Virus record (IMG/VR): IMGVR_UViG_3300010362_000035
Coordinates: 1-44,739 of that record
Length of the DNA stretch: 44,739 nucleotides
DNA from: a virus
Lineage: Duplodnaviria; Caudoviricetes
Strand: one strand, 5' to 3'
Shown here: one piece after another, positions 1,124 through 40,705 of the stretch
Position numbering within the stretch: position 1 is the first letter of the stretch
Layout: each line of letters begins with the position of its first letter
The notes under the pieces: model-generated
Seen by the model: the letters and a program-made list of their open reading frames with translations, nothing else
Databases searched by the model: none
Told to the model about the DNA's origin: nothing
Position numbers and translations under genes: made by a program

Positions 1124-1849
1124 TCAGGCGGCTACGTTCCAGAAGAGCGCGCCGTCCGCCGCCTGGCCCTCGATGAAGCGCCAAGCCTTCGCGTCGTATT
1201 CGGCGCAGGAGGGGAAGGGCGGGGGGAGGAGGGCCCGCTGGGAGAAGCGCTCCGGGGCCTTGAGGATCTCCGCGCGCCCTACGCCGTCGGCAAGCAGCAC
1301 GCCGTCGCCCCCGATCTGGACGCCGTAGGCGCGCGCGAGCGGGGCGGCCTGCTGGAGCGCGCGGCAGAGGAGGCCGGAGCCGACGGCGCACCAGATCTCC
1401 GCCGGCGGGGAGGGGAGCCGCGCGAAGACGCCCCCTGCGAGTTCGGCCAGCGCGTCGAGGACGCGGGGGTCGCGGAGCGAGAAGGGGACTAGCTGGGCTC
1501 CGCGCTCCTCCGCGAGCTCGCGGGCGCGCGCGCGTACGAGCGAGAGGTAGCCGGGGCGGACGGCGCGGATCTCAGCGCCGGCGGCGCGGGCCCTGCGCGT
1601 GATGCTGCTCTCGCTGGCCCTTGAGGCGACGACGATGGTGCAGGGGATCCCCAGGTCGGCGCAGGCGAGCGCGAGCGCGAGTTGGGCGTGGCCTTCCGCG
1701 GGCGTCGGGTAGACGGCCGGCCGGCCGTCGAGGACGATCGGGGCGACGCGCCGCTTCGTGCCGCCGGGGAGGAGATCCTCGCGGACAACCCAGAGCCGCC
1801 GCCCGCCGGCGATCCGCCGGGACTCGAGCGCGGGCTCCGGGAGGCTCAT
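1124..1849 (-). CDS. PLP-dependent enzyme, fold type II (tryptophan synthase beta-like superfamily)
   Basis: VVREDLLPGGTKRR (Schiff-base Lys), GHAQLALA, Gly-rich CAVGSG phosphate loop, YDAKAW...LFWNVA; ATGA overlap at the start. Confidence 0.85.
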   Translation of the reverse strand: MSLPEPALESRRIAGGRRLWVVREDLLPGGTKRRVAPIVLDGRPAVYPTPAEGHAQLALALACADLGIPCTIVVASRASESSITRRARAAGAEIRAVRPGYLSLVRARARELAEERGAQLVPFSLRDPRVLDALAELAGGVFARLPSPPAEIWCAVGSGLLCRALQQAAPLARAYGVQIGGDGVLLADGVGRAEILKAPERFSQRALLPPPFPSCAEYDAKAWRFIEGQAADGALFWNVAA

Positions 1850-2244
1850 GAGGGGCGCTGGCCCTGCCGCTCCGCTCGCCATTGCGCGAGCAGGCTCTCG
1901 TCGTGAAGCTCCCAGAGATGCAGGACGTCGGGATGGACGTTGAGCCAGTAGGAGCGCGGCGGGACGCCGACGGCGAAGGGGACGCCCGGGCGCAGGTCGT
2001 GGGCGGCCTGGACAAGCTCCGCCCATGTGGGTACGCGCCCCCGCCCGCGGTCCTCGTAGCGCAGGGAGATGTGCCAGCGCCGGTCCCCGCGCGCGATCTC
2101 GTCGTAGGAGAGGAAGGCGACCAGCCCGCGCCGCTCGTGCCGGAAGGCTCGCGGCTGGATCGAGCCCTCCGGATAGAGGCCGGCGAGGACTTCCGGGACG
2201 GGCTCCTGCCTCCAGCCGGCGGCGGCGGCGAACATCGAGGTCAT
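1846..2244 (-). CDS. Conserved phage hypothetical protein (WHISL...PTWxE...NVHPxxLHLW type)
   Basis: His/Trp motif pattern seen in phage proteins of unknown function; coupled overlaps on both sides. Confidence 0.75.
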   Translation of the reverse strand: MTSMFAAAAGWRQEPVPEVLAGLYPEGSIQPRAFRHERRGLVAFLSYDEIARGDRRWHISLRYEDRGRGRVPTWAELVQAAHDLRPGVPFAVGVPPRSYWLNVHPDVLHLWELHDESLLAQWRAERQGQRPS

Positions 2245-2651
2245 CCCGCCTGGCCGTCCAGCCAGCCGTCGGTGTCGACGCCCAGCGCCTCGACGAGCAG
2301 GCGCATGCGCTCCCCGATGACGAGGATCGTGGCTCTCAGCGCGAGGAGATCCTCCTCCTCGTCGAGGGCCTCCCAGGCTTCGAGGACGCCCTGGCCCGTG
2401 CCCTTCTCCTCCTGGACGGCGATGATGCCCTCCGCGAGGTGGCCGATGAGCATCGAGAGGACGCTGACGCAGGCGGCGAAGGAGGAGGGGTCGTCGGCGG
2501 GGCCCTCCATCGCCGCCTCCCAGAGCGCGCGGCCCGTCAGATGCTCCCCCTCCTCCTCCGGCAGGGCCTCTCCGATGCTGCGCGGCGGCCCGCGGCGGAC
2601 GAACTTGCGCGCGTAGCCGTGGCCGTCGGGGCCTCTGCGATGGCGGCTCAT
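2241..2651 (-). CDS. Hypothetical protein (136 aa)
   Basis: GGAGG RBS, ATGA overlaps. Confidence 0.7.
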   Translation of the reverse strand: MSRHRRGPDGHGYARKFVRRGPPRSIGEALPEEEGEHLTGRALWEAAMEGPADDPSSFAACVSVLSMLIGHLAEGIIAVQEEKGTGQGVLEAWEALDEEEDLLALRATILVIGERMRLLVEALGVDTDGWLDGQAG

Positions 2652-2905
2652 TGGTACTCCTCCCCCAGTGCGCCGGCGAGGCGCTCGATCAAGCGGAGCG
2701 CCTGGGCGTCCTCGATCTCCAGCCATGCGGAGTCGTGCTTCTCGTAGCGCTTCCCCGGCTTGCCGCGGATCGTCATCATGAGGAGCCCCTCGTCGCTTCG
2801 CTCGATCTCGACCTTCGAGGGCATCGCCGTGACTTCCGGCTCCTCCGAAGGAAGATCCTCCTCCGGGTTGAATTGCCAGTAGGAGAGCATGATGGGCGGG
2901 CTCAT
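2648..2905 (-). CDS. Hypothetical protein (85 aa)
   Basis: GAGGAGG RBS, ATGA overlaps. Confidence 0.7.
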   Translation of the reverse strand: MSPPIMLSYWQFNPEEDLPSEEPEVTAMPSKVEIERSDEGLLMMTIRGKPGKRYEKHDSAWLEIEDAQALRLIERLAGALGEEYQ

Positions 2906-3057
2906 CGCTGGAGCCTCCTCTCCGCGCCCTCCGTCCGGGCCCGCTCAAGATTGGCCTCCGCCCGGAGCTTCTGGACGTCGAGGCGGACCATGAGAAGCGC
3001 GGCGGCGGCAAGGATCGCGACGAGCCCCAGGATGAGAACAACCCAGGGCCAGGTCAT
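2902..3057 (-). CDS. Small membrane protein (51 aa, MTWPWVVLILGLVAILAAAALL...), absent from the ORF track
   Basis: Read manually; one hydrophobic helix plus coiled coil; ATGA overlaps at both ends; GGAGG RBS. Confidence 0.7.
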   Translation of the reverse strand: MTWPWVVLILGLVAILAAAALLMVRLDVQKLRAEANLERARTEGAERRLQR

Positions 3058-3272
3058 GCCTCCCTCCAGTGCCGCCCGGAGATCGAGTCGTCGATCTCGC
3101 GAGCGCCGGCGACGGCCTCCGCCGGCGTCTCGTACGGGCCGGTCGCGAAGTCACCCTCCTCCGGCATCGAGACTACGACGTAGCCCTCCGCGCGCGTGCC
3201 ATGCAGAAGCCAGCCGTGGGCGGCGAGGATCTCGCGCGCCCTCCTGGCCGTCATGCCCGTCAGCCCGCTCAT
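3054..3272 (-). CDS. Hypothetical protein (72 aa)
   Basis: ATGA overlaps at both ends. Confidence 0.6.
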   Translation of the reverse strand: MSGLTGMTARRAREILAAHGWLLHGTRAEGYVVVSMPEEGDFATGPYETPAEAVAGAREIDDSISGRHWREA

Positions 3273-3664
3273 GCCGCGAGCCTCGCGCTGATCTGCGCCG
3301 CCGTCACGCCCATATCGGAGAGGAGCTTCCTCAGCACGGCGTTCTCGCGGGCGGCCGCGCCGTCCTCCTGCGCCTTCGCGCGGCGAGGCCGGCGGCGCGG
3401 CGGGATGCGGTACAGCCAGGGCCCGCGCGCCTGCTCGTCGACGAGGATGACGCCGGCCTCCGCCAGCGGCTCCAGATAGTTCCATACCGTCGCGGGGCTC
3501 CCGCCGGCGCGCTCCGCGATGGCCTCCTTCGACGCGTCCTTGCCTTCGGCGGCAAGCTCGCAGATGGCGACGTAGACGGCGACGCCCGTGAGCTTCTTCC
3601 CGCCGGCGGGGAGCGCGGCGCGAGCTCGCGCAAGCTCCTTCGCTGGGATCTCGATGTTCATCAT
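3269..3664 (-). CDS. Winged-HTH DNA-binding protein
   Basis: SKEAIAERAGGSPATVWNYLEPLAEAGVI is a typical wHTH signature; RBS and leader motif upstream. Confidence 0.75.
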   Translation of the reverse strand: MMNIEIPAKELARARAALPAGGKKLTGVAVYVAICELAAEGKDASKEAIAERAGGSPATVWNYLEPLAEAGVILVDEQARGPWLYRIPPRRRPRRAKAQEDGAAARENAVLRKLLSDMGVTAAQISARLAA

Positions 3665-3667
3665 TGC

Positions 3668-3703
3668 CCTCCTTCGGGGCGATTCGGGTACGCGCCTAGA
3701 TTA
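3668..3703 (-). promoter_or_regulatory. Putative promoter/leader TAATCT-N6-GTACCCGAAT...AGGAGG
   Basis: Copy of the repeated leader architecture. Confidence 0.6.
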
Positions 3704-3847
3704 CTACCTCGTCGGAGGCGCGGCGGCGGCGGGGCCGCGAGGCTCGCCCTAGGCGCGCTCCTCGCCACTCCCCGCCGCTCTGCGCGCGTACCGGGGCGGT
3801 TCCCATCCGCCCATCCGCGGTCGGGCTCCGGAACCCGCCGGGATATC

Positions 3848-4369
3848 TCAGCGGCGATAGCCGCTCTGCTCGACGTAGCGGTTGAGCCGCAGGAGCCATG
3901 CCCCCTCCCGCCAGGGCCCACCCCTCATCTGAGAGCGAGGCCAGTAGGCCATATGCCCCATCGCCGGGCTGTAGCTGAAATGGACGCGAAGCTCCGTCAC
4001 TCGCTGGGCATAGACGCTCTGGGTGGAAACCTCTCCGATGACGAGGAACGTGGCGACGCCCGTCTGCCGCTCGTACTCTCGATAGCTGTCGAGGAGATGG
4101 CGCGAGGTGCCGTGCTCCCACTCCCCCACGACGCGGCCCCAGTCGGCGGCCTCCTTCCGCTTGCATTCGACGGCGACGTGCCTTCCGTGCTTCGTCGCCT
4201 GCAAGTCCGGGAGCGTGGGATCTCGCCCGCCGGCGCGGAGGCGCGGGCCACGCCCTCCGCGAGCGGGGAGGTCTGCGAGCGGGAGCACGCTCCAGCCGTC
4301 CTCGACGAGGCGCTCTGCCGCCCACTCCTCGAAGCCCCGGCCCTGCTTGAGATTCTCCGCAAAGGCCAT
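3848..4369 (-). CDS. PD-(D/E)XK nuclease-family protein
   Basis: GRGFEEW...LPDLQA...VECKRK catalytic pattern. Confidence 0.7.
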   Translation of the reverse strand: MAFAENLKQGRGFEEWAAERLVEDGWSVLPLADLPARGGRGPRLRAGGRDPTLPDLQATKHGRHVAVECKRKEAADWGRVVGEWEHGTSRHLLDSYREYERQTGVATFLVIGEVSTQSVYAQRVTELRVHFSYSPAMGHMAYWPRSQMRGGPWREGAWLLRLNRYVEQSGYRR

Positions 4370-4370
4370 C

Positions 4371-4823
4371 TCAGAGCTCGAGTGCGTTCTGGCCCTCCAC
4401 GGCCCCCGCCGGCGGGTGGTTGTGCCGCCGCCCGAAGCGCTCGCGGAGCGCGCCGATCGAAGGCCAGCGCCCCCGATCCCGCCGGTAGCCCTCGATGTAG
4501 CGCCAGACCTCGACGTGCTCGACGTCGGCCCAGCGCGTCGGCTCGTAGAGCAGATGCCAGGGGATCTCGATCCTCGCCGCCTCGTAGAGGAGATGGGGAG
4601 GCCACCAGTCGATGACGCGATGGGCCTGCTCCAGTCGCTCCGCCGGCGAGACGCCGCTCTCCGTCGGGAGCGCGAAGAGATCCGCCTGGCCCTCGACGGG
4701 GATGCGCAGAAGCTCCTCCTGGTGCGTCTCAAGCGCGCGGCTCGCACGGGCAACGAGGATCCAGTGGCTCGTCGGGATCTGCCGGCCTCTCAGCGGCTCG
4801 ACGCGGAATAGGCGCGATGGCAT
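4371..4823 (-). CDS. Hypothetical protein with possible C-terminal helical DNA-binding element
   Basis: AGGAGG RBS; YIEGYRRDRGRWPSIGALRERFG resembles LexA-type N-terminal helices. Confidence 0.65.
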   Translation of the reverse strand: MPSRLFRVEPLRGRQIPTSHWILVARASRALETHQEELLRIPVEGQADLFALPTESGVSPAERLEQAHRVIDWWPPHLLYEAARIEIPWHLLYEPTRWADVEHVEVWRYIEGYRRDRGRWPSIGALRERFGRRHNHPPAGAVEGQNALEL

Positions 4824-4825
4824 GG

Positions 4826-4897
4826 CTTCCTCCTGGTCGGGTACGGGCGGAAGCCTAGCGGTAGGGTCGGCGGGCCCGAAACCCAGCCCAGGAGGCG
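4826..4897. promoter_or_regulatory. Back-to-back divergent promoters, each with the leader motif
   Basis: Minus: TAGGCT-N7-GTACCCGACCAGGAGG; plus: TAGGGT-N4-GGGCCCGAAACCCAGCCCAGGAGG. Confidence 0.6.
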
Positions 4898-4898
4898 G

Positions 4899-5237
4899 AT
4901 GATGGAGAGCATCGCGGAGCAAGCGGCGGCGGCCCTCAGCAACGGGCAGGCCGGCCAGATACCGGAGCCGCCCCCGATCCCCCCGCTGGAGGGCGACGCT
5001 CAGCTAACGCTCAATCTGGGGACGCTGGCGCGCGGGCCCATCGAGGCGGAGGTCTCGCTCATGAGCGCCAGCATCCCGCTTGAGGGGATGCTCTCCCCCA
5101 ATGAGGAGGCGCTCCTCTCCGTCAGCGTCATCGCCCATAGCTACCGCTACGTCCCCGTCCGCGAGAACGGGCGCGTCGTACGCTGGAAGCTCCGCCTGCA
5201 AGTTCGGCCTACCGGGGCCTCGCGCCTGCGCCCCTGA
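4899..5237 (+). CDS. Hypothetical protein (112 aa), rare plus-strand gene
   Basis: GGAGG RBS, leader variant, fills the gap between minus-strand genes, followed by a hairpin. Confidence 0.75.
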   Translation: MMESIAEQAAAALSNGQAGQIPEPPPIPPLEGDAQLTLNLGTLARGPIEAEVSLMSASIPLEGMLSPNEEALLSVSVIAHSYRYVPVRENGRVVRWKLRLQVRPTGASRLRP

Positions 5238-5243
5238 AACGCG

Positions 5244-5266
5244 AAGAGCCCGCTCGCGCGGGCCCT
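5244..5266. terminator. Hairpin between convergent genes
   Basis: AAGAGCCCGC-TCGC-GCGGGCCCT stem-loop. Confidence 0.5.
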
Positions 5267-5290
5267 CCGGTACTGCGCTGTACCCGCCCC

Positions 5291-10779: not shown

Positions 10780-11415
10780 TCAGGGCACGCTCGCGACGAG
10801 GCAGACGATGATCGTCGCCGTCGCCTCCGGATTGCGCTGGTGCACATCGATGGTCGTCCGCGTCGAGCCCGGGGGGCAGTTGAAGCCCTGCCCCTGGTCG
10901 CCGGGCGGCCCCTGCGGCCCCTGCGGCCCGATCGGTCCCGGGGGGCCTGCCGCTCCAGCCGGGCCGATCTCGCCCACCGGCCCCTGCGCCCCCGCGGGCC
11001 CGCGCTCGCCTGCGGGGCCTCGCGCGCCCGTAGCGCCGTCCTGGCCCGCCTCGCCGGTAGCCCCGGCCTCGCCGGCCGAACCTCGAGCTCCGCGCGCACC
11101 GCGCGCCCCGCGCCTGCCTGCCGCGCCCTGGCTTCCCTGGGCTCCGGCGGGGCCTGGGCCGCCCTCCGCGCCCGGGGCCCCTGCCGCGCCCTGGGAGCCC
11201 TTCGAGCCCTTCGAGCCCTTCGCCCCCGGCGTACCCTGCTCGCCGGCGGGGCCCGCGGGACCGGCGGGCCCCGCTGCTCCTCGCGGCCCCGTCTGCTGCG
11301 AGGAGGGCTCCGGGGAGTTCATCGCATTGACGCCGACGGCGACGGCGGAGGCCCCGCAGAGCGCCGTCATGACGCCCACGAGCAGAAGCGTCGGGATCCT
11401 ACGTAGCAGGCTCAC
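10780..11415 (-). CDS. Membrane-anchored or secreted collagen-like protein
   Basis: Hydrophobic N-terminus, about 45 uninterrupted Gly-X-Y triplets, C-terminal CPPG...C module; GTG start uncertain. Confidence 0.75.
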
Positions 11416-11638
11416 TGGGCATCGGGCCGCGCTCGTGGGAGACGTCGCGGCGCAGGAGGGCAAGCTCTACGCGCGCGGCGACGAGCTCATCGAGGAGATG
11501 GTCGTCGATATCTCCGGGATTGAGGATCGTCGGCCCCGGCTTCGAGCGGAAGGAACGAATGATCTGGAGCAAGCCGGCCACCGCCCCCAGGAGGCCGACG
11601 AGAGCGGTAACGCCCCCGATGGCTGTCTCTGGCGACAC
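11399..11638 (-). CDS. Single-TM lysis-cassette membrane protein
   Basis: N-terminal TM helix followed by coiled coil, directly after the holin. Confidence 0.6.
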
Positions 11639-11641
11639 GGC

Positions 11642-11977
11642 TCATGGGGCGGGCTCGTTGAACTTCGTGGGGTCGCGCACGTCCTTCTCGTAGCTCTGCC
11701 ATCCCGACAGCCACTTCGAGGCGATGGCGGCGATGGCGAGCATGCCGCCCACGAGCCCGCCCGTCGAGGCGAAGTCGAGGTTGGCGAGCGCCGGGGCCAG
11801 GGCCGTCGCCAGGCCCGCAATCGCGCCCAGGACGGCGACGATCCGGCCCTTGTTGAGGCCCGCCGGGACGGGCGTCTGCTTGACGATGGTCTCGATCTGC
11901 GTCGCCACGGAGGCGACGGTCTCCGCGCCCTTCTCTAGCTGCCCCCCGCTGGGGGGCCTGCGCTGTGCTGGACTCAT
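11642..11977 (-). CDS. Putative holin
   Basis: Two hydrophobic helices; ATGA-coupled to the lysozyme. Confidence 0.7.
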
Positions 11978-12618
11978 GATGTCCTCGCCAGGAGAGACTT
12001 GTACCGGGCCCGGCGCTCCGCCTTGTCCCACCCGCTCTTCTGGGCGGCCTGCCAGATCCGCTTACGCTGCTCCGTCATGACGCGCCGCAGAACGCGCCGG
12101 CGCGCCGGATCTTTCTTCTTCCGCAGGAGCGAGTCGTACTCTCGCATCCAGCGCCGCTCGCTGTCCGTGTAGCCCGTCCGCTCCGGCTGGGAGAGGAAGA
12201 GCGCCCTCTCCGCCTTCCGCCGGCGCGTCAGGCCGGGGAGCGCCCGCCCCCCAGCCTTGTCCCACTTGAGAAGCTCGTCCGCCGCCCGCTTGTAGTCGCG
12301 GGCCCGGAGGGCTCTCCCAACCCCGGTATTCGAGGCGATCCCCCCGGGCCCGACGTTGTAGACGAAGGAGCAGAGCGCGTCGTACTGGCTCTGGTTGAGG
12401 GGGACGCCCAGGCGATCCACGGCCGCCCCGTACGTCGCCGTGACCTCCCGGATGAGGCGCTCCTCCGCCTGCTTCTGGCTGACGCATTTGGTATGCGGCC
12501 CCACGCCCTTCGTCGAGCCGTACCCGATCGTCCAGACGCCGACGGCGTCCCGGTACGGGCAGGACCGGAAGCCCTCGAAGCCCTCGATGAGCTTCGCGCC
12601 CTTGCTACTCAGGCGCAT
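11974..12618 (-). CDS. Endolysin, GH24 (T4-type) lysozyme with basic C-terminal extension
   Basis: E-x8-D-x5-T triad EGFRSCPYRDAVGVWTIGYG; LNQSQYDALCSFVYNVG; LPGLTRRRKAERALF. Confidence 0.92.
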   Translation of the reverse strand: MRLSSKGAKLIEGFEGFRSCPYRDAVGVWTIGYGSTKGVGPHTKCVSQKQAEERLIREVTATYGAAVDRLGVPLNQSQYDALCSFVYNVGPGGIASNTGVGRALRARDYKRAADELLKWDKAGGRALPGLTRRRKAERALFLSQPERTGYTDSERRWMREYDSLLRKKKDPARRRVLRRVMTEQRKRIWQAAQKSGWDKAERRARYKSLLARTS

Positions 12619-12856
12619 CCGGCTTCTCCGATCCCTCCTCCGCGTCCGGGGGAGCCGCGAGCTCCTGCTCGTCGCTGACGTCGGGCTCCTCCCCGCCGGC
12701 CTCCTCGTCCTCCAGCGGGCCCTCGCCCTCGTCCTCGACGTCGTCGAAGGCGGCGTCCGGCTCGTCGGCCTGCTCCTCCGCCGGCGCGTCGGCGTCCGGG
12801 GGCGCGCCCTGCTCCTCCGGAGGCTCCGCGCCCTGGCCCTGCTCCTGCTCGCTCAT
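12605..12856 (-). CDS. Highly acidic, probably disordered protein (83 aa)
   Basis: MSEQEQGQG...; D/E/P/A-rich; ATGA-coupled to the peptidase gene. Confidence 0.65.
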   Translation of the reverse strand: MSEQEQGQGAEPPEEQGAPPDADAPAEEQADEPDAAFDDVEDEGEGPLEDEEAGGEEPDVSDEQELAAPPDAEEGSEKPDAPE

Positions 12857-13533
12857 CCCACCAGCCCCTTCATGTAGTCGTACCGCCGGCGGCGGTTGTT
12901 CTTGTTCCAGCCGTCGCGCTTCGCCGCGTTGGCGATATCGCGCATATAGGCGCGCAGGCGGCCCTTCGCCTTCGTTGCCCGCGCGAGATGGCTCTTGTCG
13001 ACCTTCCCCCATCCGCCGTTGCGCTTCGCGATCCTCCGCTCCTTCACGAGCGTGTCGCGCGCCGCCGCCTCGCCAGGCGTCAGATACGCGCGCGGATGCT
13101 TCTTCGGCTTCGCGCTCTCCCCTCGATGGCGGTCCTTGTCCGGGTGGTAGAGGGCATGCCACGCCTCGCTGGGGGCGTCAGAGCCCAGAGAGGCCCCGCG
13201 GATCCCCCAGCCGTACTCCGGCCCGTACTTCCGCATGGCGGCCTGCATCGCCGCCGTCGGCAGGTCGACAGCCACGCCCCATCCGTGGTTGCTCGTCCCG
13301 GGGCGAGCGGCGAGCGCCCCCTTGCCGCTCTGGTAGAGCCGCCAGAAATACTCCTGGTCGGCGTACGGGCGATAGGCCGTCCGCGCAGAGGTCGGGCAGA
13401 TCCAGACGCCCCGCTCCTTCCCGATGCGCTGGCGCAGGCGAAGCCAGGAGGCGGCGGCGTCCCTCCTCAGCCAGCCCCCGGGAATCTCCGCGAGCTCGCT
13501 CGCCGGGATGCGCCCATTCGCGTAGGCCATCAC
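12853..13533 (-). CDS. Endolysin, M15 (VanY-like) Zn peptidase with basic C-terminal domain
   Basis: AYRPYADQ...ARPGTSNHGWGVAVD...EAWH (SxH-x6-D...ExWH). Confidence 0.85.
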   Translation of the reverse strand: MMAYANGRIPASELAEIPGGWLRRDAAASWLRLRQRIGKERGVWICPTSARTAYRPYADQEYFWRLYQSGKGALAARPGTSNHGWGVAVDLPTAAMQAAMRKYGPEYGWGIRGASLGSDAPSEAWHALYHPDKDRHRGESAKPKKHPRAYLTPGEAAARDTLVKERRIAKRNGGWGKVDKSHLARATKAKGRLRAYMRDIANAAKRDGWNKNNRRRRYDYMKGLVG

Positions 13534-16310: not shown

Positions 16311-16637
16311 CTACACCTCCGTCTCTTCCGCGATCCTGGCGCTTACGCGGATGCGCTGGGAGCCGCGCCCATCATCCCGGAGCTCGATCTCAAGGACGGC
16401 GCGGCTCTCATAGACCCCGACCTGCCGCTCGATCTCCGCGACGGCGCGGTCCGTCGGGATCTGGTCGAAGGCGGGGTCCGTGATCCCGAAGTCGGGGGCC
16501 TCCGCCCTCCAGCCGCGCCGGAAGCAGAGAAGCGCGGCGACGGCGGCCGCCACCTCGCTGTCGGTGTCCTGCTGGATCGAGGAGAAGCGCGAGCCCTCTA
16601 CGCGGATCGGCCAGTCGAGATGCGGGAGGTCATCCAT
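16311..16637 (-). CDS. Baseplate wedge gp25/GPW-like protein
   Basis: GWRAEAPDFGI...YESRA; size and position. Confidence 0.8.
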   Translation of the reverse strand: MDDLPHLDWPIRVEGSRFSSIQQDTDSEVAAAVAALLCFRRGWRAEAPDFGITDPAFDQIPTDRAVAEIERQVGVYESRAVLEIELRDDGRGSQRIRVSARIAEETEV

Positions 16638-19336
16638 TAGCGCGCTACCACCTCGATGGTAAGGACGTTGAGGGTCATCGAGTTGTCCCAGCGCCAAGTC
16701 CCGCCGCCGCTCTGGAAGTAGTGCGAGAACGTATATGTCGTCGAGGCGGCGAGATCTACGTAGAAGGCTCCTCCGAAGGCGACGTAGGCCGTGCCGCCGG
16801 AGTGCCCGACGGCGATCTGGCGCATGTTGCGATTGCTCGCTGAGCTTGCCCAGCCGTCATAGTCGGCGACAGGCGCGGGGGAGATGGCGACGCCAGCCCC
16901 GGCCCAGTTCCACGCCGCATCGAGCGGATCCCACCTCTGCTTCCAGAGGACGCGCGCTCGAGTCGGGTAGGCGGGAGCGGCGTAGACGATCTGCCGCGCC
17001 GCCACGGCGTCGGTGTACTGCCCGCCGCTGGCGATGGTGCCGAAGCTCCCCGCCTGGCCTCCGGTCGAGCGGAAGTCGACGAAGGGCGTGCCGGGACTGC
17101 CCTGCGGGCCCTGGGAGCCCTGCGTGATGCGCGTGATCTCAAGCGCCCCGGACATCGCGCCGCTGGTGTTGGAGAAGATCTGGAGGGACATCCCCTCCCC
17201 GGCGTTGAGCCGCACGACCGCGGGATAGCCGCTGGCGATGCCGATCCCGGAGCCGCCCGTGATGACGCTGGTATCGAGCGCCTGGGCCGACTGGGCGTTC
17301 CCTCCGGCCCCGTAGTCGAGGCGCATCCAGAACCGCGTGTTGCTTCCCGGCGAGACGATCCGGGCTGAGACGAGATACGTGCCGGCGTCGCGGCATATGA
17401 CGGTCTGCCCGTCGGCGGCGACGGAGTAGGCGGCCGCATCGCCGCCCTTCTCCCCCAGCGCCATCGAGCACTTGAGGAAAGCGCCGGCCGTGGCGGTGCC
17501 GGAGACGGCCACCCGGACGAAGTTCGGGGGCGAGGTATTGACGGGCCCCGTAGGCCCCGTGGGCCCCGTAGGCCCGGCGGGCCCATCCGCGCCGGCGGGC
17601 CCCGGAGGGCCCTGGGGCCCCTGCGCCCCGACAAGCGCGCCGGCGGAGTCGATCTGCGCGCCCGTGACCTTGACGATCTGGGCGATGAGGACGTAGGGCG
17701 GCAGGTTGTTGTGGGCCGCCCCGGCGCTCAGCGCGGCGGCGTTCTGGATCGAGATCCCCGTCCCCGCCCATTCAGTAGCGCGCCCCGTGATGTTGGCCGG
17801 GAGCGTATCCGTGCGATTGAGGTACGTAAGCTGCGTGCTCGCCGCGCCGTTGAACTCGACCCGCTCGTACGTGGCGTGCTGGTGGGAGGGATCATTTACG
17901 CCGTGGGCATGGGCAGGCATCCCGGACTCGCTGGCCGTCAGGAGATGCGTCGCCTCGCCGCCCGCGCCGCCCTGCGTGGCGGCGTCCTGCGCCCCGTAGA
18001 TGAAGCGCCCCCGGAGATCCGGGATGTTGAAGTGCGAGGCGTCGGCGGAGCCGTACTTCGTGCCGATGGCGGCGAAGAGATCCGGGTAGGCGGCTCGATC
18101 AAGCGAGCGCCCGTCGGCCAGCATCCAGTTGGCCGGGATCGTGCTCCCGGAGTACGCTTTGACCGTCCCGATCTGGTCGGAGTCGTAGACGGTCCCCATC
18201 GGGCCCGTCGCGCCGGTGTCGCCCTTCGGGCCCTGCGCCCCGGTAGCGCCCGTTGGGCCAGGCGGGCCGGTAGCGCCCGTAGCGCCGGCGGGCCCGGTAG
18301 CGCCGGGATCGCCCTTGAGGCCCTGCGCGCCCGTATCCCCCTTCGGGCCCTGCGGGCCGGTAGCGCCCGTCGCTCCCGGATTGCCCTGCGCGCCCTGCGG
18401 GCCCTGCGCTCCGGGCGGCCCCTGGATCGAGCCGCCGCTGACCCATTGCGAGCCGTCCCAGATCCAGAGGGAGTCGTCGGCCTGGACGATGAAGGCGTCG
18501 CCCTGCTCATTGCCGGAGGGCGGGAGGTCGCCGGCGGTCGGCACGGAGCCCCGCATCGTGATTCCGGAGCCCGCCTCGCCCTGCGGCCCCTGGATGCCCT
18601 GCGGGCCCTGTCCCCCGGTAGCGCCAGGGGGGCCCGTAGCGCCGGGAGGGCCCGTAGCGCCCGTCGAGCCAGTAGCGCCGGTAGCGCCCGTAGGGCCAGG
18701 CGGGCCGGCAGGCCCGGTAGGCCCCGGAGGGCCCTGCGGGCCGGGCTGGCCGGGGACGACGAGAGAGACGCCCATCGGGCGGTTGTTGGCGGGCATCCCT
18801 CCTGGGCCCGACTGGCGATAGGCGACGGGGATGCTGACGTACGTGCCGTGGTCGGTAGCCGGGGCCAGCACGTCGAAGCTCCCCCAGATGTCCGGATCGT
18901 CGCTCTGCTTGAGCGCGAGGATCTGGCCGGGCTGGAGGCCGGCGAGATTGCTCTCGCCGCCCGCGGCGTTCTCCTTCGCGAGATTGACAATCGTGGCGGA
19001 AACCCAGCCGCTCGAATTGACCCCGACGCGCCCCTTCGCCGCGTCCGTCGTGGAGGTCGTCCAATTCCAGTCGCCGGAGACGATCGCTCCTCCCCCGCCG
19101 CCCGCGCCGGCGACGGGATGGACGACGAAGGGTGTGCCGACCTGGGAGCGGACGACGCAGACGCGGTCCCCGACGGCGGCGGCCTCTGAGCCTACGAGCG
19201 GCCCTAGTAGCTGCTGGGCTCCGTCGATGATCGCCCAGCGCTCGTCGCGCCGGAGCGTGAGCTCGCCCTCCAGCACATTGACCTCGCCGGGGCCCGTGGG
19301 CGGCGGGGCCGTGACCTGGTCGAGCGAGGGCGTCAA
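16637..19336 (-). CDS. Large collagen/tail-collar fibre or spike protein (about 899 aa)
   Basis: TTG start with GGAGG RBS overlapping the hub stop; three Gly-X-Y tracts; tail-collar motif; beta-rich C-terminal domains. Confidence 0.8.
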
Positions 19337-21447
19337 GTCCCCCTCCAGTGCCTCGCCACGAAGCCGGCCGTCGAGCGCGTGCCCATTCGCAGGCGCGGGC
19401 CTCGATCCGCCGGCGGCGCGGCGTTGCGCCCCGTATCCGCGAACTTGCCGTTGCCCATGCCCTGAAACTCGATGAACGTATGCCCCGAATTGGCCCAGAC
19501 CGTCATGCGCTCGCCGGGACCCGGCTCCCCCCAGGACATAAGCCCGCCGGAGGTGGTGGCCGGCGAGCCGGGCTGAAAGCCCAGGCCGGCAGCGGCGAGG
19601 ATCGCGCAGACGTAGCCGGAGCAGTCGAAGCCGGGAGGCGGCCCGGAGTTCTTCGACGGCGTATTCGTCCCGGCGTCCGCCGTCCCGCATCGAGCATGCC
19701 CGCCGCCCCAGATGTAGGGCAGGGAGCGATCTGAGATCGCCTTCGCCTCCGCGTACGCCCTTCCCGTGGCGCTCGAGTCGGCGCGCTCGCCTCCGGAGCC
19801 GCCGCCCTCGATGGCGCTCTGGGCGCGCGAGGAGCGCTCCGCCGCGGGCTCCAGCTTCTCTTTCCCTGGCTGTTTGATCGTGACCTCCGCCGTCGGCTGG
19901 AACCAGTCGCGGCGCACGCTGGTGATGAGCCAGCGTCCGTCGGGCGGGCCGAAGCCGGAGAGCAGGACCACCGCGCCAGGCGGAGCGCCCCAGCGATCCA
20001 GCGCGACCGTGATCGTCGCCTCGCTGACCGGCTTCCCCCAGTCGACGTCGTAGGCGAGATCGAGGAGAAGCTCGCTCTCCTGCGTGATCTCATAGCGCGG
20101 CCGGCGGCGGAAGAGATCCTCCTCGCTCATGTAGTAGACGGCCTCGCCGACGACGAAGCATCGCCAGCCGACCTCCTCCGCGAGGCGCTGGATCGCCGCC
20201 CAGGAGTCCTCGTTGGCTTCGCGCGCGAACTGGTAGCTCTTGACGTAGGAGCCCCCGCCGGCGGCGGCGTCGCTCTCCGCGCTCGATGCGCCGCCCCAGG
20301 CGCGGACGGCGCGCTTGCTCTCCGCCTCCCATGCCCCGTAGCCGCCGACGCTGACCTGGACGGCCGTGATTGCGGCGGTGAAGCCGCCGGGAAGGCTCTT
20401 GAGGGAGCCGTGCTTCTTGAGCCAGCCGGGGGCCGTCCCCTTCCCCTTCGCCTGCGGCGTCCCGGAGAGCAGGAAGGCGTTCGTGACGAGGACGGGGTCC
20501 ATGACGTCGGAGGCCGGGATCCAGTTCCGCCCCTGCTGCATGATCCCTACGTCGTCGTTGCCCGTCATCGAGACCTGCTCGCCCATGACGCTCTCCTGCG
20601 TCGCGCAGGCGAGGCAGGCGGCCATCACGTCGGCGGAGCATCCCAGCCGCCCCGCCTCCGCCAGGATCCCCTCCATCCGCCCGCGCTGGGCGGCGCTCGC
20701 GGGCTTCCCCTTCACCGTGAGCTTCGCGCCGGCGGCGAACCCTCCCTGGCCGGGCTCGCTCGCGGCGGAGGAGGAGCCGTTGGAGGCGGCGCGGAGCGCC
20801 TGCGTCGTCGAGCGGCCCGCCTGCTGCTCTGAGGAGGCGGAGGCCGAATCGATGCGCTGGCGCACGTCGAGCTCAGGGCAGACGAAGGGCGGGCGGACGA
20901 GCTTGATCTCGCGGATGAGCGAGAGGATGAACTGCGCCCGCGTCACGCTCGCTCTGGAGGCCCGCCGCTGGCCCTTCTTCCGGCGCAGGAGGTAGACGAT
21001 GCGATCCTCGAAGGTCAGCGTGAGCTCCTGGCCGGCGTGGCTGTAGCTGACGGCGACGAGGCGGAAGACGGCCCCATCGAGCGTGACCTGCATCGCGCGG
21101 CCTACCACGTCCGGGCCCAGCATCGGCTCCCAGCCCTCGTCTACGTCGACGGGCTGGCGGCGGCTCTTGAGCGGCACGACCTTCGGGCGCATGCGGCGCG
21201 CCCATTGCGAGAAGAGGCGGCCCCCGGGATCGCGAAGCACCATCGTCAGCGTCGAGGCCCCCTCGACGGAGCGCTCGAGTTCGAGGCTCGTGATCGCCCC
21301 GCGCGCCTCCAGATCCGTGACGCGCCGATCGGTCCAATTCAGCACGAGGTCGGTCAGGTCGAGGGTAGGCGCGAGCCCTACGTTCTCCCAGCGCGCCCAT
21401 TGCGCGTCGCTCTTCCACGTCGAGGCCCGGTAGCGAGTGCGCGGCAT
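19333..21447 (-). CDS. Baseplate hub / tail-associated lysin with C-terminal NlpC/P60 domain
   Basis: Hub-like [18 protein letters not shown]; PYIWGGGH...GFDCSGYV...GHTF (Cys-His). Confidence 0.85.
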
Positions 21448-36790: not shown

Positions 36791-36793
36791 GCT

Positions 36794-36841
36794 TCCTCCT
36801 GGGGGATTCGGGTACAGAGAGCATCGTACCAAATGGGACGC
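36794..36841 (-). promoter_or_regulatory. Putative promoter/leader TACGAT-N7-GTACCCGAATCCCCCAGGAGG with overlapping 15-bp box
   Basis: Near-copy of the 1048-1096 element. Confidence 0.65.
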
Positions 36842-36874
36842 GCCTTGAGCCCGAATCCCGCGCAGGAGATGGGC

Positions 36875-37276
36875 TCAGCGGTAGCCGCAGACGGGCCAGT
36901 CGGCCCAGGAGCCCCGCCGCAGGAAGACCCGGACGGCCCGGTACTTCTGCTCCAGCGGCGAAGCCCAGTGGGGCATCCCCCGCCCGCCGGCGGAGAGCCA
37001 GGTGCCGACGGTGAATTGCAGGCCTCCGAAAAAGCCGTTGCCTGTCGCGATATGCCAGCGCATCCCGCTTTCGCACATCGCGATGCGGTTCAGCTTGGCG
37101 TTGTAGGGCCTGACGACGGCCCAGCGCGAGGCGCGCCGGCGGACGATCTTCTGGGGGGCGGATCGATGATGCCCTCCCTGGGCCGCATGAGCGCGAGGGG
37201 CCTCCGCCATCATTGCGCTGGCGGAGGGAGGGGCGGCGAGCGCGAGCGCGGCCGCCGCCGGGATGACGTATCGCAT
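36875..37276 (-). CDS. rpf: Secreted resuscitation-promoting factor (Rpf)-like lytic transglycosylase
   Basis: Signal peptide; IAMCESG-W---TGNGFFGGLQF---TW...ASPLEQ...WPVCG is the Rpf domain consensus with catalytic Glu and two Cys. Confidence 0.9.
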   Translation of the reverse strand: MRYVIPAAAALALAAPPSASAMMAEAPRAHAAQGGHHRSAPQKIVRRRASRWAVVRPYNAKLNRIAMCESGMRWHIATGNGFFGGLQFTVGTWLSAGGRGMPHWASPLEQKYRAVRVFLRRGSWADWPVCGYR

Positions 37277-37291
37277 AGCTGTCCTCCGCGA

Positions 37292-37483
37292 TCACCTCTC
37301 CGGCGCGCTTGGCTTCCTCAGCCGCGCCGGCCGTGACCGGGGGGCCCTCCTCTCTGGGGGTTCGGCCCGCTCAAGCTCCGCGAGCTCTTCGGGCGTTGGT
37401 TGGTCCTCCGGCTCCGCCGGAAGCTCTTCGTCGCGCGCCAGGCGGGCGGCGGCCTTGAGGTCGCGGCTCTCGCGATCCCTCAT
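37292..37483 (-). CDS. Hypothetical protein (63 aa)
   Basis: ATGA-coupled to the C5 MTase. Confidence 0.5.
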   Translation of the reverse strand: MRDRESRDLKAAARLARDEELPAEPEDQPTPEELAELERAEPPERRAPRSRPARLRKPSAPER

Positions 37484-38769
37484 CGAGCGGCCTCGTATTC
37501 GAGGATCCGCCGGCCGATCCATTCCGCGATCTGCGGGACGAGGGCGTTCCCTAGCGCCCTAAGTCGGTCCACGCGAGCGGGAATCCCATGAGCCACTCGA
37601 CCCACGTCGGGTTCAGCGCCCCACCACGCCGCTCCGTCTCCGGGCCATCCGGCGGGGGGCCACCGCGGTGCTCGCGGGCCACGGCCGTCGCGAGGTCGTC
37701 CCCGCCGCTCCCCTCCCGATCCGCCCGCGCGTAGTCCGGCCCCGACGGGCTCGACTTCGGGGTCGGCCAGAGCCTCGCAGGCGGAGCGCCGGAAGCAGGC
37801 CTCATGCTCGTCGTATCCGCCGGCGGGCCTGCCACAGTAGATGCATCGTGGAAGATCGCCGTCGCCAGCGTCACCGCCCGCTTGCTCCCGGAGGGCCGCT
37901 GGCCGCCAAGCTCCGCGCTCCTCCGCCCCCCGCTCCCGTCGCTCGCCTCCGGCGTCGGCCAGAGCTTCCCCTCCCGGACGACCACCTCGTTGAGGGGGCG
38001 CGAGTTGCGCGCATGCGTCGCCTCCGACGCCTCCCCCGACCGCCAGTCGCGCGCCGCCGGCGTAGGCCAGAGCTTCTCGAGCTCGCTCCGATTGACGGCC
38101 CGCCCTAGCTCGTTGCCCGACGGCCCCGGCCGGCGCGGCTCCCCCGGCTTCGCCATCCCATGCGGCGTCGGCCACTCGTTGCGGCGCGCCATCGTCGACA
38201 GCGAGGGCGTCCCCGCCGACGGGCGCTCGAAGGCCCCGCCCTTCCCGTTGATCCCGTTCTGGCTGGAGCCGTACTCCGTCGCCGCAGGGGTAGGCAATAA
38301 GCCAGAGGCGGTCCCTCTGGTGAGGGGCACCGAAGGCGCTCGCGGGTAGACAGTCCCATTCCGCATCGAACCCGCGCGCGGCAAGGTCGGCAAGGACGGT
38401 ATCGAGGCCTCTAGCAGCGAGAGTTGGGACGTTCTCCACGAGGACGTAGCTGGGTCGAAGCTCGCCAACGAGGCGAGCAAACTCCCGCCAAAGACCCGAC
38501 CGCTCGCCGGCGATCCCGGCCCCGCGGCCGGCGACGGAGATGTCCTGGCAGGGGAAGCCCCCGCAGAGGAGGTCGACGGGCTCGACATACTCGCCTCTCA
38601 AGGATCGGACGTCGGGATAGCAGGGGATCCGGGGCCAATGGCGGTGAAGGACGCGCTGGCAGAAGGGGTCGTTCTCGCAGTGCCATGCGATGCGGAAGCC
38701 GGCGCGCTGCAAGCCAAGCTCCCAGCCCCCGATCCCGGAGAAGAGGCCGCCGACGCTCAGACGCCGCAC
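37480..38769 (-). CDS. DNA cytosine-5 methyltransferase, catalytic (alpha) chain
   Basis: LFSGIGG (I), GGFPCQD (IV), VENV (VI), QRDRLW (VIII), LGNALVP (X); start 38769 or 38781. Confidence 0.9.
   Translation of the reverse strand: MRRLSVGGLFSGIGGWELGLQRAGFRIAWHCENDPFCQRVLHRHWPRIPCYPDVRSLRGEYVEPVDLLCGGFPCQDISVAGRGAGIAGERSGLWREFARLVGELRPSYVLVENVPTLAARGLDTVLADLAARGFDAEWDCLPASAFGAPHQRDRLWLIAYPCGDGVRLQPERDQREGRGLRAPVGGDALAVDDGAPQRVADAAWDGEAGGAAPAGAVGQRARAGRQSERAREALAYAGGARLAVGGGVGGDACAQLAPPQRGGRPGGEALADAGGERRERGAEERGAWRPAALREQAGGDAGDGDLPRCIYCGRPAGGYDEHEACFRRSACEALADPEVEPVGAGLRAGGSGGERRGRPRDGRGPRAPRWPPAGWPGDGAAWWGAEPDVGRVAHGIPARVDRLRALGNALVPQIAEWIGRRILEYEAAR
37551..38588 (-). CDS. Overprinted second (beta/TRD-like) chain of the C5 methyltransferase
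   Basis: 345-aa ORF nested in another frame of the same strand; five (L/W)PTP repeats and terminal LNPTWVEWLMGFP (motif IX-like). Confidence 0.7.
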   Translation of the reverse strand: MSSPSTSSAGASPARTSPSPAAGPGSPASGRVFGGSLLASLASFDPATSSWRTSQLSLLEASIPSLPTLPRAGSMRNGTVYPRAPSVPLTRGTASGLLPTPAATEYGSSQNGINGKGGAFERPSAGTPSLSTMARRNEWPTPHGMAKPGEPRRPGPSGNELGRAVNRSELEKLWPTPAARDWRSGEASEATHARNSRPLNEVVVREGKLWPTPEASDGSGGRRSAELGGQRPSGSKRAVTLATAIFHDASTVAGPPADTTSMRPASGAPPARLWPTPKSSPSGPDYARADREGSGGDDLATAVAREHRGGPPPDGPETERRGGALNPTWVEWLMGFPLAWTDLGR

Positions 38770-39569
38770 ATGCCCTCGCATTCAGCCCCGAAGAGATCCA
38801 TCTGGCCGAAGTCCTCCGGCGTGCGGAGATCTACCTCCTCCAGCGGGAGCCCGGAGTAATGCACGAAGAGCTCGCCCTCGACCTGCGGCATCTTCCGGAT
38901 CGCGCGGTCGAAGGCGACGGCGTCGGCCCAGAGCCCGGCGTCGGCCTTGATCTCCCGCCACTGAGGATTCGAGTGGTACGGGCAGGCGATGCAAGCGCTC
39001 TTCGGGGGCTCCGGATAGCCGTGCCGGCTCATCCAGAGCTTGCAGTCGTGGCGCGTCATCCGCCGCTCGATCAACGGCCAGGCGGCGCGCGCCCAGGGGA
39101 CGCGGGAGGGCTTCATGCGCTGGATCTCGTCGAAGGAGATCCCGATCCACTGCTCGACGGGCTCGCCCTTCCGGCCCCCGTAGCCGCGCCGGCGGATCTC
39201 GTCGAAGATCGCCTTGAGCTTGTACTGGTTCGTGCACTGCCGCCACATCTGCCCGCGAGGCCGCCCGCCGCCCCGGACGTGCAGCGGGATCGGCGGCGGG
39301 CCCTTCCCTCCGTGCCGCTGGCGCTCGAGTCCGTCGAGGTAGTCGTCGCGCAGATTGCCGCGCGAGACGCGGACGATCTCGATCCGGCCGGCGACCTCCG
39401 CTTCGAGGAAGGAGAGCCAGTCGTAGACGGCGGGCGGCTCCCAGCCGGTGTCGGCAAAGATCGCCGCCTCCGGGGAGCCGTACTCCTCAAGCTCGCCGGC
39501 ACAGGCCATGAGCAGCATCGTCGAGGACTGGACGCCTGCGCCCAGGGAGATGAAGATCGGCCGGCTCAT
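38757..39569 (-). CDS. PP-loop (PAPS reductase / adenine nucleotide alpha-hydrolase-like) Cys-rich protein
   Basis: ISLGAGVQSS, IFADTGWE, RQCTxxYK, WIGISxDE, KSACIACPY, terminal ECEGMC. Confidence 0.8.
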   Translation of the reverse strand: MSRPIFISLGAGVQSSTMLLMACAGELEEYGSPEAAIFADTGWEPPAVYDWLSFLEAEVAGRIEIVRVSRGNLRDDYLDGLERQRHGGKGPPPIPLHVRGGGRPRGQMWRQCTNQYKLKAIFDEIRRRGYGGRKGEPVEQWIGISFDEIQRMKPSRVPWARAAWPLIERRMTRHDCKLWMSRHGYPEPPKSACIACPYHSNPQWREIKADAGLWADAVAFDRAIRKMPQVEGELFVHYSGLPLEEVDLRTPEDFGQMDLFGAECEGMCGV

Positions 39570-40705
39570 TCGAGGCCCTCCATCGGCGCGCAGAGCTTCG
39601 CCGCTTTCATCGGGTCGCCCTTGACGAAGACGAGGAGGTTCTGGTGGATGCGGGCGATCTTCGCGGAGGGGATGAGGAAGCGCCCTACCCGCTGGGGGGC
39701 CGTGCCGGGGCTGTTGACGATGATGAGGTCGTTGTAGAAGCGCAGGCCGGCCTCCTCGAAGGTCGCGATGGTCTCCCCCACGAAGCCTTTGTAGAGGCCG
39801 GGGGGCGGCCCTCGAAGCTCGCTGACGACGAAGGCGGCGAAGCGATCGGGGCGGAGCCTGCTCGCGGCGTCCGCGATGGCGTCCTGATAGCCGCGCTGGA
39901 ACTCCGGCCAGTCCATCCCGGAGAGATCGGCATCGAGGTCGGAGTAGCGCTCAAGGTCGTGGTAGGGCGGGCAGGAGAAGAGGAAGTCCGCCGGCGGCGG
40001 CGCATGCTTCTGCTGGGCGGCCTCGCGCGCGAGGCGCGGCGCGGTCGGCGGCGGCTTCCGGGCGTCGCCCTCATACCAGCGGGGGCGATGCGCGACCGTC
40101 CCGAACATCCCCTTCGGCGCGAAGATCTGGAGCGCCTGGCGGCGGTTGGCGCGCACCTGCTCCTGGCGAAGCTCGACGCCGACGTAGGGATGGTCGAGGG
40201 CGGCGGCGACGATGCCGCGCACGGCCCCGCCGGCGAAGGGGTCGTAGATGAGGCCGCCCGGCGGGCACCACCAGCGGTAGCAGGCCTCCGCCACGACGGG
40301 GTCGAAGATCGAGGTCGAGCGCTCGATGCTCCCGTTGCGCTCCGGCGGCTCATACAGGCCGGAGTCGATGAACTCCCGCATCGAGAAGCTCCGGCCCGTC
40401 TGCTCCTCCGCCGCGCGCTTCTTGTCGTAGAAGGCCCCGTCGCGCATCGCCGGCGAGAAGTTCAGGAGGTTGTCCTCGCGCCCGATGAAGCGCTCCGGCT
40501 CGATCCCCAGAAGCTCCCAGTCGCGCCGGCGCTCCTTGTGCGGGCCCGCCATCGTCCAGATGATCGAGAAGGGCGGGATCCGGAAGCGCGAGCGCAGATC
40601 CGGATTCGCGATCGGTGCTCGCCGGAGATCTCCCAGCGCCATCTCCTGCTGTGCGGGGGGAAGCCGGCGCGCGGGGGCGGCGGGGGCGTCGGGCACGGGC
40701 GGCAT
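39566..40705 (-). CDS. SAM-dependent amino-methyltransferase-fold DNA-modifying enzyme (atypical SCPPY)
   Basis: SIFDPVVAE, IYDPFAGGAVRG (motif I), GVELRQEQV, DFLFSCPPYHDLERYS (motif IV), HQNLLVFVKG. Confidence 0.85.
   Translation of the reverse strand: MPPVPDAPAAPARRLPPAQQEMALGDLRRAPIANPDLRSRFRIPPFSIIWTMAGPHKERRRDWELLGIEPERFIGREDNLLNFSPAMRDGAFYDKKRAAEEQTGRSFSMREFIDSGLYEPPERNGSIERSTSIFDPVVAEACYRWWCPPGGLIYDPFAGGAVRGIVAAALDHPYVGVELRQEQVRANRRQALQIFAPKGMFGTVAHRPRWYEGDARKPPPTAPRLAREAAQQKHAPPPADFLFSCPPYHDLERYSDLDADLSGMDWPEFQRGYQDAIADAASRLRPDRFAAFVVSELRGPPPGLYKGFVGETIATFEEAGLRFYNDLIIVNSPGTAPQRVGRFLIPSAKIARIHQNLLVFVKGDPMKAAKLCAPMEGLE

Follow-up and report, generated by a model that had tools for sequence, protein, structure and literature searches.

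Enzyme genes of the circular phage genome

The IMG/VR virus record IMGVR_UViG_3300010362_000035 (Duplodnaviria; Caudoviricetes), the whole 44,739 nucleotides of which are referred to below as the window, represents a complete circular phage genome of 44.6 kb with a GC content of ~71%, a terminal repeat of 123 nt and, according to a PHROG scan, the genes of a contractile tail. Three of its proteins are considered here: an amino-methyltransferase-fold enzyme (hereafter MT), an enzyme dependent on pyridoxal 5'-phosphate (PLP), and a protein that joins a GNAT domain to a 2-oxoglutarate (2OG)-dependent hydroxylase domain. Together they constitute a real and widespread module, most likely for an undescribed hypermodification of DNA bases with new entry chemistry. 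An earlier note on this DNA had listed these genes, along with a fourth coding for a PP-loop protein, in connection with one candidate pathway; all four open reading frames (ORFs) were found at the positions given there, on the minus strand, and match the expected families (Table 1).

The distance between the MT and PLP genes over the junction of the circle, put at about 5 kb in that note, was measured at 5,034 bp, and that between the PLP and GNAT/2OG genes at 4,968 bp. A strong ribosome-binding site lies ahead of the MT gene, and the start codon of the PLP gene overlaps the stop codon of an upstream DUF7694 gene. The ParB domain carried by many homologs of MT is absent from the window MT itself; a ParB-like gene is present separately.

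Table 1. Positions, strands and family matches of the enzyme genes of the window and of neighbouring ORFs.
Feature	Position	Strand	Matches and remarks
MT, amino-methyltransferase-fold enzyme, 379 aa	39566..40705	-	phrog_12517 E 2e-83; phrog_498 E 2e-61
PLP enzyme, fold-type II, 241 aa, Lys32	1124..1849	-	Pfam PALP E 3e-15; phrog_7093 E 2e-34
GNAT/2OG two-domain protein, 408 aa	6818..8044	-	Asp_Arg_Hydrox, residues 266-377, E 2e-6; GNAT fold, residues 1-171
PP-loop protein, PAPS-reductase-like, Cys-rich	38757..39569	-	phrog_424 E 4e-40
C5 cytosine DNA methyltransferase	37480..38781	-	PF00145 E 8e-39; TIGR00675 above cut-off
Second long ORF, other frame	37551..38588	-	phrog_1008 (DNA methyltransferase) E 3e-31
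ParB-like DUF6551 gene	42987..43919		2.3 kb upstream of MT

The methylase-fold enzyme

The PHROG matches, the motifs and the class I S-adenosylmethionine (SAM) fold of the structural model (pLDDT 79.9) all bear out the earlier description of MT as an amino-methyltransferase fold with SCPPY. Motif I (DPFAGGAVRG) precedes motif IV (FSCPPYHDLERY), and the protein contains FSCPPY. The canonical consensus of amino-methyltransferases acting on N6 of adenine or N4 of cytosine (N6A/N4C) is FxGxG in motif I and (D/N/S)PP(Y/F) in motif IV, as also observed in the 2ZIE and CcrM alignments; MT retains the class I SAM fold and a PPY motif IV, but neither consensus occurs in it. The alteration extends through the clade: FAGG[SA]VRG and CPPY are found in 63/63 aligned sequences, as against FAGTGTT and TSPPY in 2ZIE (GTGTT versus GGSVR in motif I), motif IV reads CPPYxxLExY, and the residues R163, C245, E252 and Y254 are invariant in these 63 sequences.

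A sister group has TSPPY, with GWGGR in motif I and SPPYFxxExY in motif IV. It takes the same partner genes (see below) and has the Arg of motif I and PPYxxxExY in common with the CPPY group; for this reason the Cys in SCPPY, a motif stressed in the earlier note, is not decisive. Members of the family are annotated as DNA methylases or ParB proteins, and IMG/VR is estimated to hold ~2,600 stretches with the clade.

The PLP enzyme

The PLP enzyme is homologous over its full length to gp52 of phage M6 (hhalign 93.8%, 210 columns, E 2e-7, 26% identity). Its K32, invariant in 69 sequences, aligns next to K36 of gp52, phrog_7093 contains both proteins, and the C-terminal PFP..YD.KAW and FWN motifs of the gp52/gp226-type decarboxylases are encountered in the window enzyme as well. 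M6 gp52 and ViI gp226 decarboxylate amino acid-base adducts in DNA, for which a free alpha-amine is needed (Lee et al., PMC8989533). Gp2 of the cultured phage Vincenzo, which is paired with an MT, is nearer to the ViI type, and both subtypes are thus found together with MT. In a quick tree of the PLP proteins both M6 gp52 and ViI gp226 have long branches, and the tree supports no order of events. From this homology the window protein is predicted to be an optional tailoring enzyme, which would decarboxylate a base-linked amino-acid arm.

The GNAT/2OG protein

Structure prediction, one of the checks proposed in the earlier note, gave a class I SAM fold for MT and, for the two-domain protein (pLDDT 95.7), an N-terminal GNAT domain and an AspH-type 2OG domain. 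The GNAT domain (residues 1-171) aligns to 2pc1 over 150 residues with a Z-score of 12.5 and an rmsd of 3.5, and scores a TM of 0.65 in the Atlas. The 2OG-Fe(II) hydroxylase that the note had recognised has the HxD...H triad and the Arg that binds 2OG intact in a double-stranded beta-helix, H301, D303, H359 and R369 being conserved in 96%, 99%, 100% and 94% of 105 sequences, respectively. The closest folds of this domain are proline cis-4-hydroxylase (Z 15.8), proline 3-hydroxylase (15.2) and Cpz10 (15.2), AspH being also found among them. The best PDB match of the single sequence is Cpz10 (E 8e-7), and the profile ranks a proline hydroxylase first. Cpz10 places a hydroxyl group on the beta carbon of a 2-aminobutanoyl arm, which has four carbons and is proposed to derive from SAM, and the PLP enzyme Mur23 decarboxylates the same compound (PMC9814697). 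By fold and motifs, the GNAT/2OG protein would be an optional tailoring enzyme, a predicted hydroxylase.

A full-length GNAT/2OG homolog is encoded by the cultured phage LilMcDreamy (L006) as gp4, following ParB, the TET/JBP-like gp2 and gp3, an amino acid:DNA transferase (ADDT). No MT of the clade was found in the LilMcDreamy genome, and the protein thus also serves a different system, one by which amino acids or amines are attached to DNA. LilMcDreamy gp2 itself is annotated as queuine tRNA-ribosyltransferase and has a weak Tet_JBP match; genes 1-4 of this phage are a candidate thymidine hypermodification cluster.

Linkage of the three genes in other genomes

The neighbourhoods of the three genes were compared in IMG/VR, using the best 80 of at least 603 confirmed loci for MT, the best 80 of 334 for PLP and the best 80 of 252 for GNAT/2OG. 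Near-identical loci were merged into 69, 61 and 55 groups, respectively, and linkage was scored within 10 kb. Alignment queries were required for these searches, single-sequence scans yielding no loci for MT and GNAT/2OG and two for PLP. An amino-methyltransferase accompanies PLP in 57 of the 61 PLP-seeded groups (CPPY in 42 and TSPPY in 17, two groups having both), and in the remaining four the sequence stops within 140 bp of the PLP gene. The 2OG-seeded groups contain MT in 45/55 cases and PLP in 36/55. Starting from MT, PLP was met in 17 of 69 groups and 2OG in two. In a set of large phages (L153-L165), a single PLP gene has three paralogous GWGGR/TSPPY enzymes no more than 10 kb away. The GNAT domain was also considered as a Mom-like donor of an amino acid to the PLP enzyme; this was rejected, as the domain is present in only 3/61 PLP groups.

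Fifty records picked for having no nearby PLP gene (36 MT-seeded, 11 2OG-seeded and three cultured) were taken for a whole-record check, of which 49 were searched; a PLP gene was detected elsewhere in one of the 49, and in none of the 17 near-complete virus records of this set. The closest complete relative of the window phage (G001) retains MT (62%) and GNAT/2OG (71%), ~10 kb apart, and lacks the PLP, PP-loop, C5 methylase and ParB-like genes. In GTDB genomes, a clade MT is found at 13 of 21 PLP loci; two loci end early, and at six PLP stands alone in actinomycete chromosomes. These six (L356-L361) belong to Saccharothrix, Lentzea, Herbihabitans, Actinokineospora and one actinomycete metagenome-assembled genome. 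Among cultured phages, MT and PLP occur together in Vincenzo, AlanGrant, R6L, ZS04, Pam4 and Mae-JY30, and HCTV-2 has MT with no PLP gene detected.

With PLP and 2OG in 17/69 and 2/69 MT groups and PLP in 0/17 near-complete records, MT is usually alone and its partners are optional. Since MT mostly stands alone and the partners in phages are almost never without it, MT is the likely entry step.

Fusions and contexts linked to DNA

The three genes are also fused, in several orders. In the Erythrobacter phages ZS04 and R6L and in the Pseudanabaena phage Pam4, MT is interrupted after motif I and before motif IV by the PLP domain, and the PLP gene adjoins that of MT in Mae-JY30, Vincenzo and AlanGrant. 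In addition, MT is fused to PLP in 5/61 PLP groups and to 2OG in 6/55 2OG groups, as well as in protein P0356. At one locus (L172) a single frame of 1,275 codons reads ParB-MT(N)-PLP-GNAT-2OG-MT(C), the insertion lying in the same loop of MT. The question raised in the earlier note, whether the genes co-occur, cluster or fuse in other phages, is answered for MT, PLP and GNAT/2OG, which do all three; their functional linkage is strongly supported. The single linked pathway of that note holds for these three genes, by co-occurrence and fusion, and fails for the PP-loop gene.

The same data bear on the possibility that MT is an ordinary N-methyltransferase producing N6-methyladenine, N4-methylcytosine or N2-methylguanine, the PLP and GNAT/2OG proteins acting on the amino-acid adduct of another, unrecognised enzyme of phage or host and being fused to MT only for targeting. 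The closest PDB sequences of MT are indeed N4C/N6A DNA methyltransferases with SPPY or DPPY and permuted order, its nearest folds are true methyltransferases, and the scarcity of partners in the MT-seeded groups and near-complete records described above would suit such an enzyme. However, clustering of the neighbours of 186 locus groups revealed no fourth conserved enzyme, the commonest conserved neighbours being terminase and portal genes and, in large phages, replication genes; a methyl group offers a gp52-type decarboxylase no alpha-amino acid; and the partners keep to one MT clade with an altered motif I, inside the MT domain of which they are inserted. An ordinary methyltransferase is accordingly regarded as unlikely.

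Both partners are inserted beside the half of MT that binds SAM, which would also suit channelling, as expected if the PLP and 2OG enzymes first tailored free SAM, giving decarboxylated or hydroxylated SAM, and MT transferred the finished arm, in the way CmoA supplies CmoX; in a variant of this scheme the PLP enzyme does not decarboxylate the beta-hydroxy arm but eliminates water from it. A decarboxy-SAM route is possible for MccD/MccE (PMC10491745), CmoA/CmoX provide a phage precedent for an altered SAM as the substrate of a methylase fold (PMC12783734), and fold-II enzymes are usually lyases, to which weak NCBIfam matches point. Nevertheless, gp52 and gp226 act on DNA (PMC8989533), Cpz10 did not accept SAM (PMC9814697), GNAT/2OG serves an MT-free cluster with an amino acid:DNA transferase, and MT alone, MT with PLP and MT with 2OG are all found in nature, which renders tailoring before transfer improbable.

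As regards the substrate, the MT clade appears in several DNA-linked contexts, namely ParB fusions, a place before the terminase and fusions to DNA polymerase A. Clade MTs form the N-terminal part of ORFs of ~1,100-1,150 codons at four loci (L099, L100, L105 and L130), and in the first two the fusion to DNA polymerase A was confirmed, with a PLP gene just upstream. In mycobacteriophages the MT/PLP pair occupies the slot of genes 1-2, where LilMcDreamy has TET/JBP and ADDT. A modification made during packaging and tied to ParB has been suggested in print (PMC8256090).

A module acting instead on tRNA, a virion protein, phosphate or a small amine (as a polyamine-like packaging aid) would be in keeping with the top folds of MT, the tRNA guanine N2-methyltransferases Trm11, TrmN and Trm14, with the phosphate target of MccD, with the six lone chromosomal PLP homologs and with the continued avoidance of restriction sites discussed below. 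Set against this are the PPY motif IV and the best sequence matches, which are those of DNA amino-methyltransferases, the ParB and DNA polymerase A fusions, the mycobacteriophage slot shared with TET/JBP and ADDT, and the window genome, in which no tRNA genes were found. A substrate other than a DNA base seems quite improbable, and DNA is very probably what the module acts on.

Proposed pathway

It is proposed that MT would move the aminocarboxypropyl (ACP) group of SAM to an exocyclic amine of a base (A-N6, C-N4 or G-N2), that the 2OG enzyme would then beta-hydroxylate the ACP arm and the PLP enzyme decarboxylate it, and that the GNAT domain may finally acylate the product. The end product in the window phage would be a base bearing a 3-amino-2-hydroxypropyl group (+73 Da, or +115 Da with an acetyl group added), the order of the steps and any activity of the GNAT domain being our inference. 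Entry by ACP is suggested because both tailoring enzymes imply a free alpha-amino acid, each pairs singly with MT and no other donor is conserved, and because SAM carries such an arm, which class I folds are able to transfer, as exemplified by Tyw2, MccD and CntL (PMC4872110, PMC10491745). MT is thus predicted, from its motifs and partners, to be a SAM aminocarboxypropyl transferase and the likely entry enzyme. ACP as the transferred group is favoured by a little, and the complete sequence of transfer to a base amine, hydroxylation, decarboxylation and possible acylation may be considered evenly balanced between right and wrong.

Much of the ACP chemistry was already contained in the earlier note. 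Its link between the three enzymes stands, as does its PLP enzyme, now placed in the DNA-decarboxylase family; the PP-loop enzyme, the role of the Cys and the restriction to amines of A or C do not. The target is not confined to A or C, since among solved structures it is tRNA N2-guanine methyltransferases that MT resembles most closely in fold.

A number of observations weigh against the proposal. In the window the three genes lie ~5 kb from each other and form no single operon, and the six lone chromosomal PLP homologs (32-35% identity), where the flanking sequence retrieved contains no MT, speak against an obligatory link. M6 gp52 is only 26% identical to the window PLP enzyme and sits on a long branch. 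The top folds of MT are methyltransferases (Z 15.5-16.7, Trm11 reaching 16.7); MccD, at 14.2, is level with ordinary ones, and no solved ACP transferase stands out. Tyw2 is absent from the top 50 fold matches listed, and DNA methylases such as M.TaqI are not listed among the top matches either, which excludes nothing. The motif I Arg occurs in 170/171 and ExY in 171/171 clade sequences with motif I before motif IV, a count partly circular for the CPPY enzymes because their loci were fetched by those motifs, though not for the 43 TSPPY sequences; class I ACP transferases bind SAM with its methyl group buried and the ACP arm exposed, and of such binding the conserved R163 and E252 are only suggestive. 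Cpz10 is level with proline hydroxylases in the comparisons of the 2OG domain, and these therefore indicate amino-acid-like substrates and not ACP. GNAT acyltransferases possess a conserved loop after strand 4 which binds the pyrophosphate of acetyl-CoA; the corresponding residues 105-120 are variable across the 105 sequences, and for this reason the activity of the GNAT domain is uncertain.

The window is also devoid of GGCGCC (0 versus 149 expected), CCATGG, CTGCAG, GGTACC and GAGCTG/CAGCTC, and G001 of GAGCTG, CTGCAG and GCATGC, which looks like restriction-site avoidance. As several six-base sites are wholly absent, any mark on the DNA is no blanket shield against restriction; it is probably limited to a motif or used in packaging, and not a means of protection at large. 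Oligonucleotide bias of the window revealed no target motif.

A broader proposal, a shade less probable than an even one, is that the whole clade of phage "orphan methylases" consists of DNA aminocarboxypropyl transferases, the plug-in PLP, hydroxylase and GNAT domains giving a series of adducts of +101, +117, +57, +73 and +115 Da. If true, thousands of DNA-methylase annotations would need revision, the natural DNA bases would gain a further family, and DNA hypermodification would have a new way of entry, one that cultured phages possess; a single SAM enzyme able to equip DNA with a primary amine would also be of use in labelling.

Iyer et al. reportedly predicted many such phage modification systems in 2013. 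The linkage of the genes, though perhaps not their chemistry, may therefore have been published before. In the literature searched, outside of which Iyer et al. 2013 and the supplements of Lee 2021 remained, no account of the module was found, and it is unmentioned in the available parts of PMC11780129, PMC13444090, PMC13458397, PMC11955845 and PMC4472886. Transfer of ACP has been described for tRNA, rRNA and natural products; the literature searched shows none on DNA.

Neighbouring genes and other features of the window

The start of the PP-loop gene overlaps the stop of MT, and in ZS04 a homolog precedes the MT-PLP fusion by 1.4 kb, so that a fourth member of the pathway, adding for example sulfur or an acyl group, could be envisaged. 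Five PP-loop matches occur among 247 module loci. Yet none of the 61 PP-loop-seeded groups, which double as a negative control for the linkage counts, contains a CPPY MT, PLP or 2OG gene, whereas 12 of the 61 have a C5 methylase (median locus 10 kb). Since the PP-loop gene shows no linkage in these groups and is missing from G001, it is probably not a member of the module, with the enzymes of which the earlier note had listed it, but a common variable neighbour; its participation appears very remote.

Directly downstream of the PP-loop gene lies a C5 cytosine methyltransferase overlooked in the enzyme inventory of the earlier note, which was incomplete in this respect. It is probably an independent, variable neighbour. 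A second long ORF overlaps it in another frame (Table 1), and both frames have high GC at third codon positions.

The motif GTACCCGAAWCCC is repeated on the minus strand at 1058, 3679, 6436, 10523, 36064 and 36803, with 10 matches at up to two mismatches versus 1.3 expected; the copies seen sit just upstream of gene starts, and two 51-nt stretches, at 1054 and 36799, share 84% identity. The element is likely to be a promoter or leader. Two collagen-repeat proteins, one of them a tail fibre, and two adjoining lysis-region genes, one for a lysozyme-type endolysin, are located within 10780-11463, 16637-19690 and 11974-13533.

Comparison with known systems

The absence of known hypermodification genes, asserted in the earlier note, holds at the sensitivity applied. 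The window was searched in six frames with M6, ViI and LilMcDreamy queries covering aGPT-Pplase, kinase, radical SAM, thymidylate synthase, dCMP deaminase, polymerase and TET/JBP-like proteins, and nothing better than E 0.16 was obtained except for the GNAT/2OG homolog. As a source of 5-hydroxymethyluracil (5hmU), neither M6 gp58 and gp65 nor LilMcDreamy gp2 found a match in six frames, and the Pfam and PHROG scans gave none. For the 5hmU kinase and aGPT-Pplase2/ADDT, no significant match was produced by M6 gp51/gp54, ViI gp243/gp247, LilMcDreamy gp3 or PF18724, nor by phrog_6364, the control of which likewise gave none. PF01702, representing tRNA-guanine transglycosylase (TGT) and DpdA, has no match in the window and was positive in 14/14 control genomes, its sensitivity being limited for DpdA, a distant TGT relative.

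The module is no member of the 5hmU pathways but would work like them downstream. With M6 (gp51-54) and ViI (gp226, gp247) it would share a post-replicative logic in which an amino acid attached to a base loses CO2 through a PLP enzyme of this family, and tailoring by an acetyltransferase is known from PaMx11 gp48 (PMC8989533). It differs in that the window has no 5hmU, kinase or aGPT-Pplase, in that the entry enzyme has an amino-methyltransferase fold and in the addition of an AspH-type hydroxylase. The ParB-fused orphan N4/N6 methylases, such as B054 gp77, HCTV-2 gp11 and R6L ORF1 (phrog_498, phrog_12517), belong to the same family as MT, and the literature seen reports no activity for them; in R6L the fusion of MT and PLP is regarded as a CcrM-like DNA modification methylase by its authors, whose paper, in the part available, leaves the PLP insert unmentioned (PMC5463345).

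In wybutosine synthesis, too, a class I fold (Tyw2) transfers ACP and a 2OG enzyme (TYW5) later hydroxylates it (PMC3045595), although the acceptor there is a carbon of tRNA, TYW5 is of the JmjC and not the AspH type, and Tyw2 lies outside the top 50 fold matches of MT. In antibiotic pathways a SAM-derived ACP arm undergoes PLP decarboxylation or 2OG beta-hydroxylation (MccD/MccE of microcin C and Cpz10/Mur23 of caprazamycin and muraymycin; PMC10491745, PMC9814697); MccD, which aminocarboxypropylates phosphate, and the PLP domain of MccE follow the same two-step logic (PMC10491745). These pathways differ in yielding small molecules instead of modified DNA, Cpz13/Mur24 use PLP for the ACP transfer, and MT shows no special similarity to MccD.

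A parallel among phages is the CmoX/CmoA/CmoY system of Synechococcus phage S-B43, which makes carboxymethylcytosine and in which a DNA methylase fold, aided by an extra Arg, transfers a non-methyl group (PMC12783734). CmoX is a C5 enzyme using carboxy-SAM supplied by CmoA, whereas the present module has an amino-methyltransferase fold and other tailoring enzymes, and no CmoA was found among the conserved neighbours of the 186 locus groups. What the two would have in common is a phage methylase fold, often accompanied by ParB, which transfers a non-methyl group and whose product serves as a handle for tailoring (PMC12783734).

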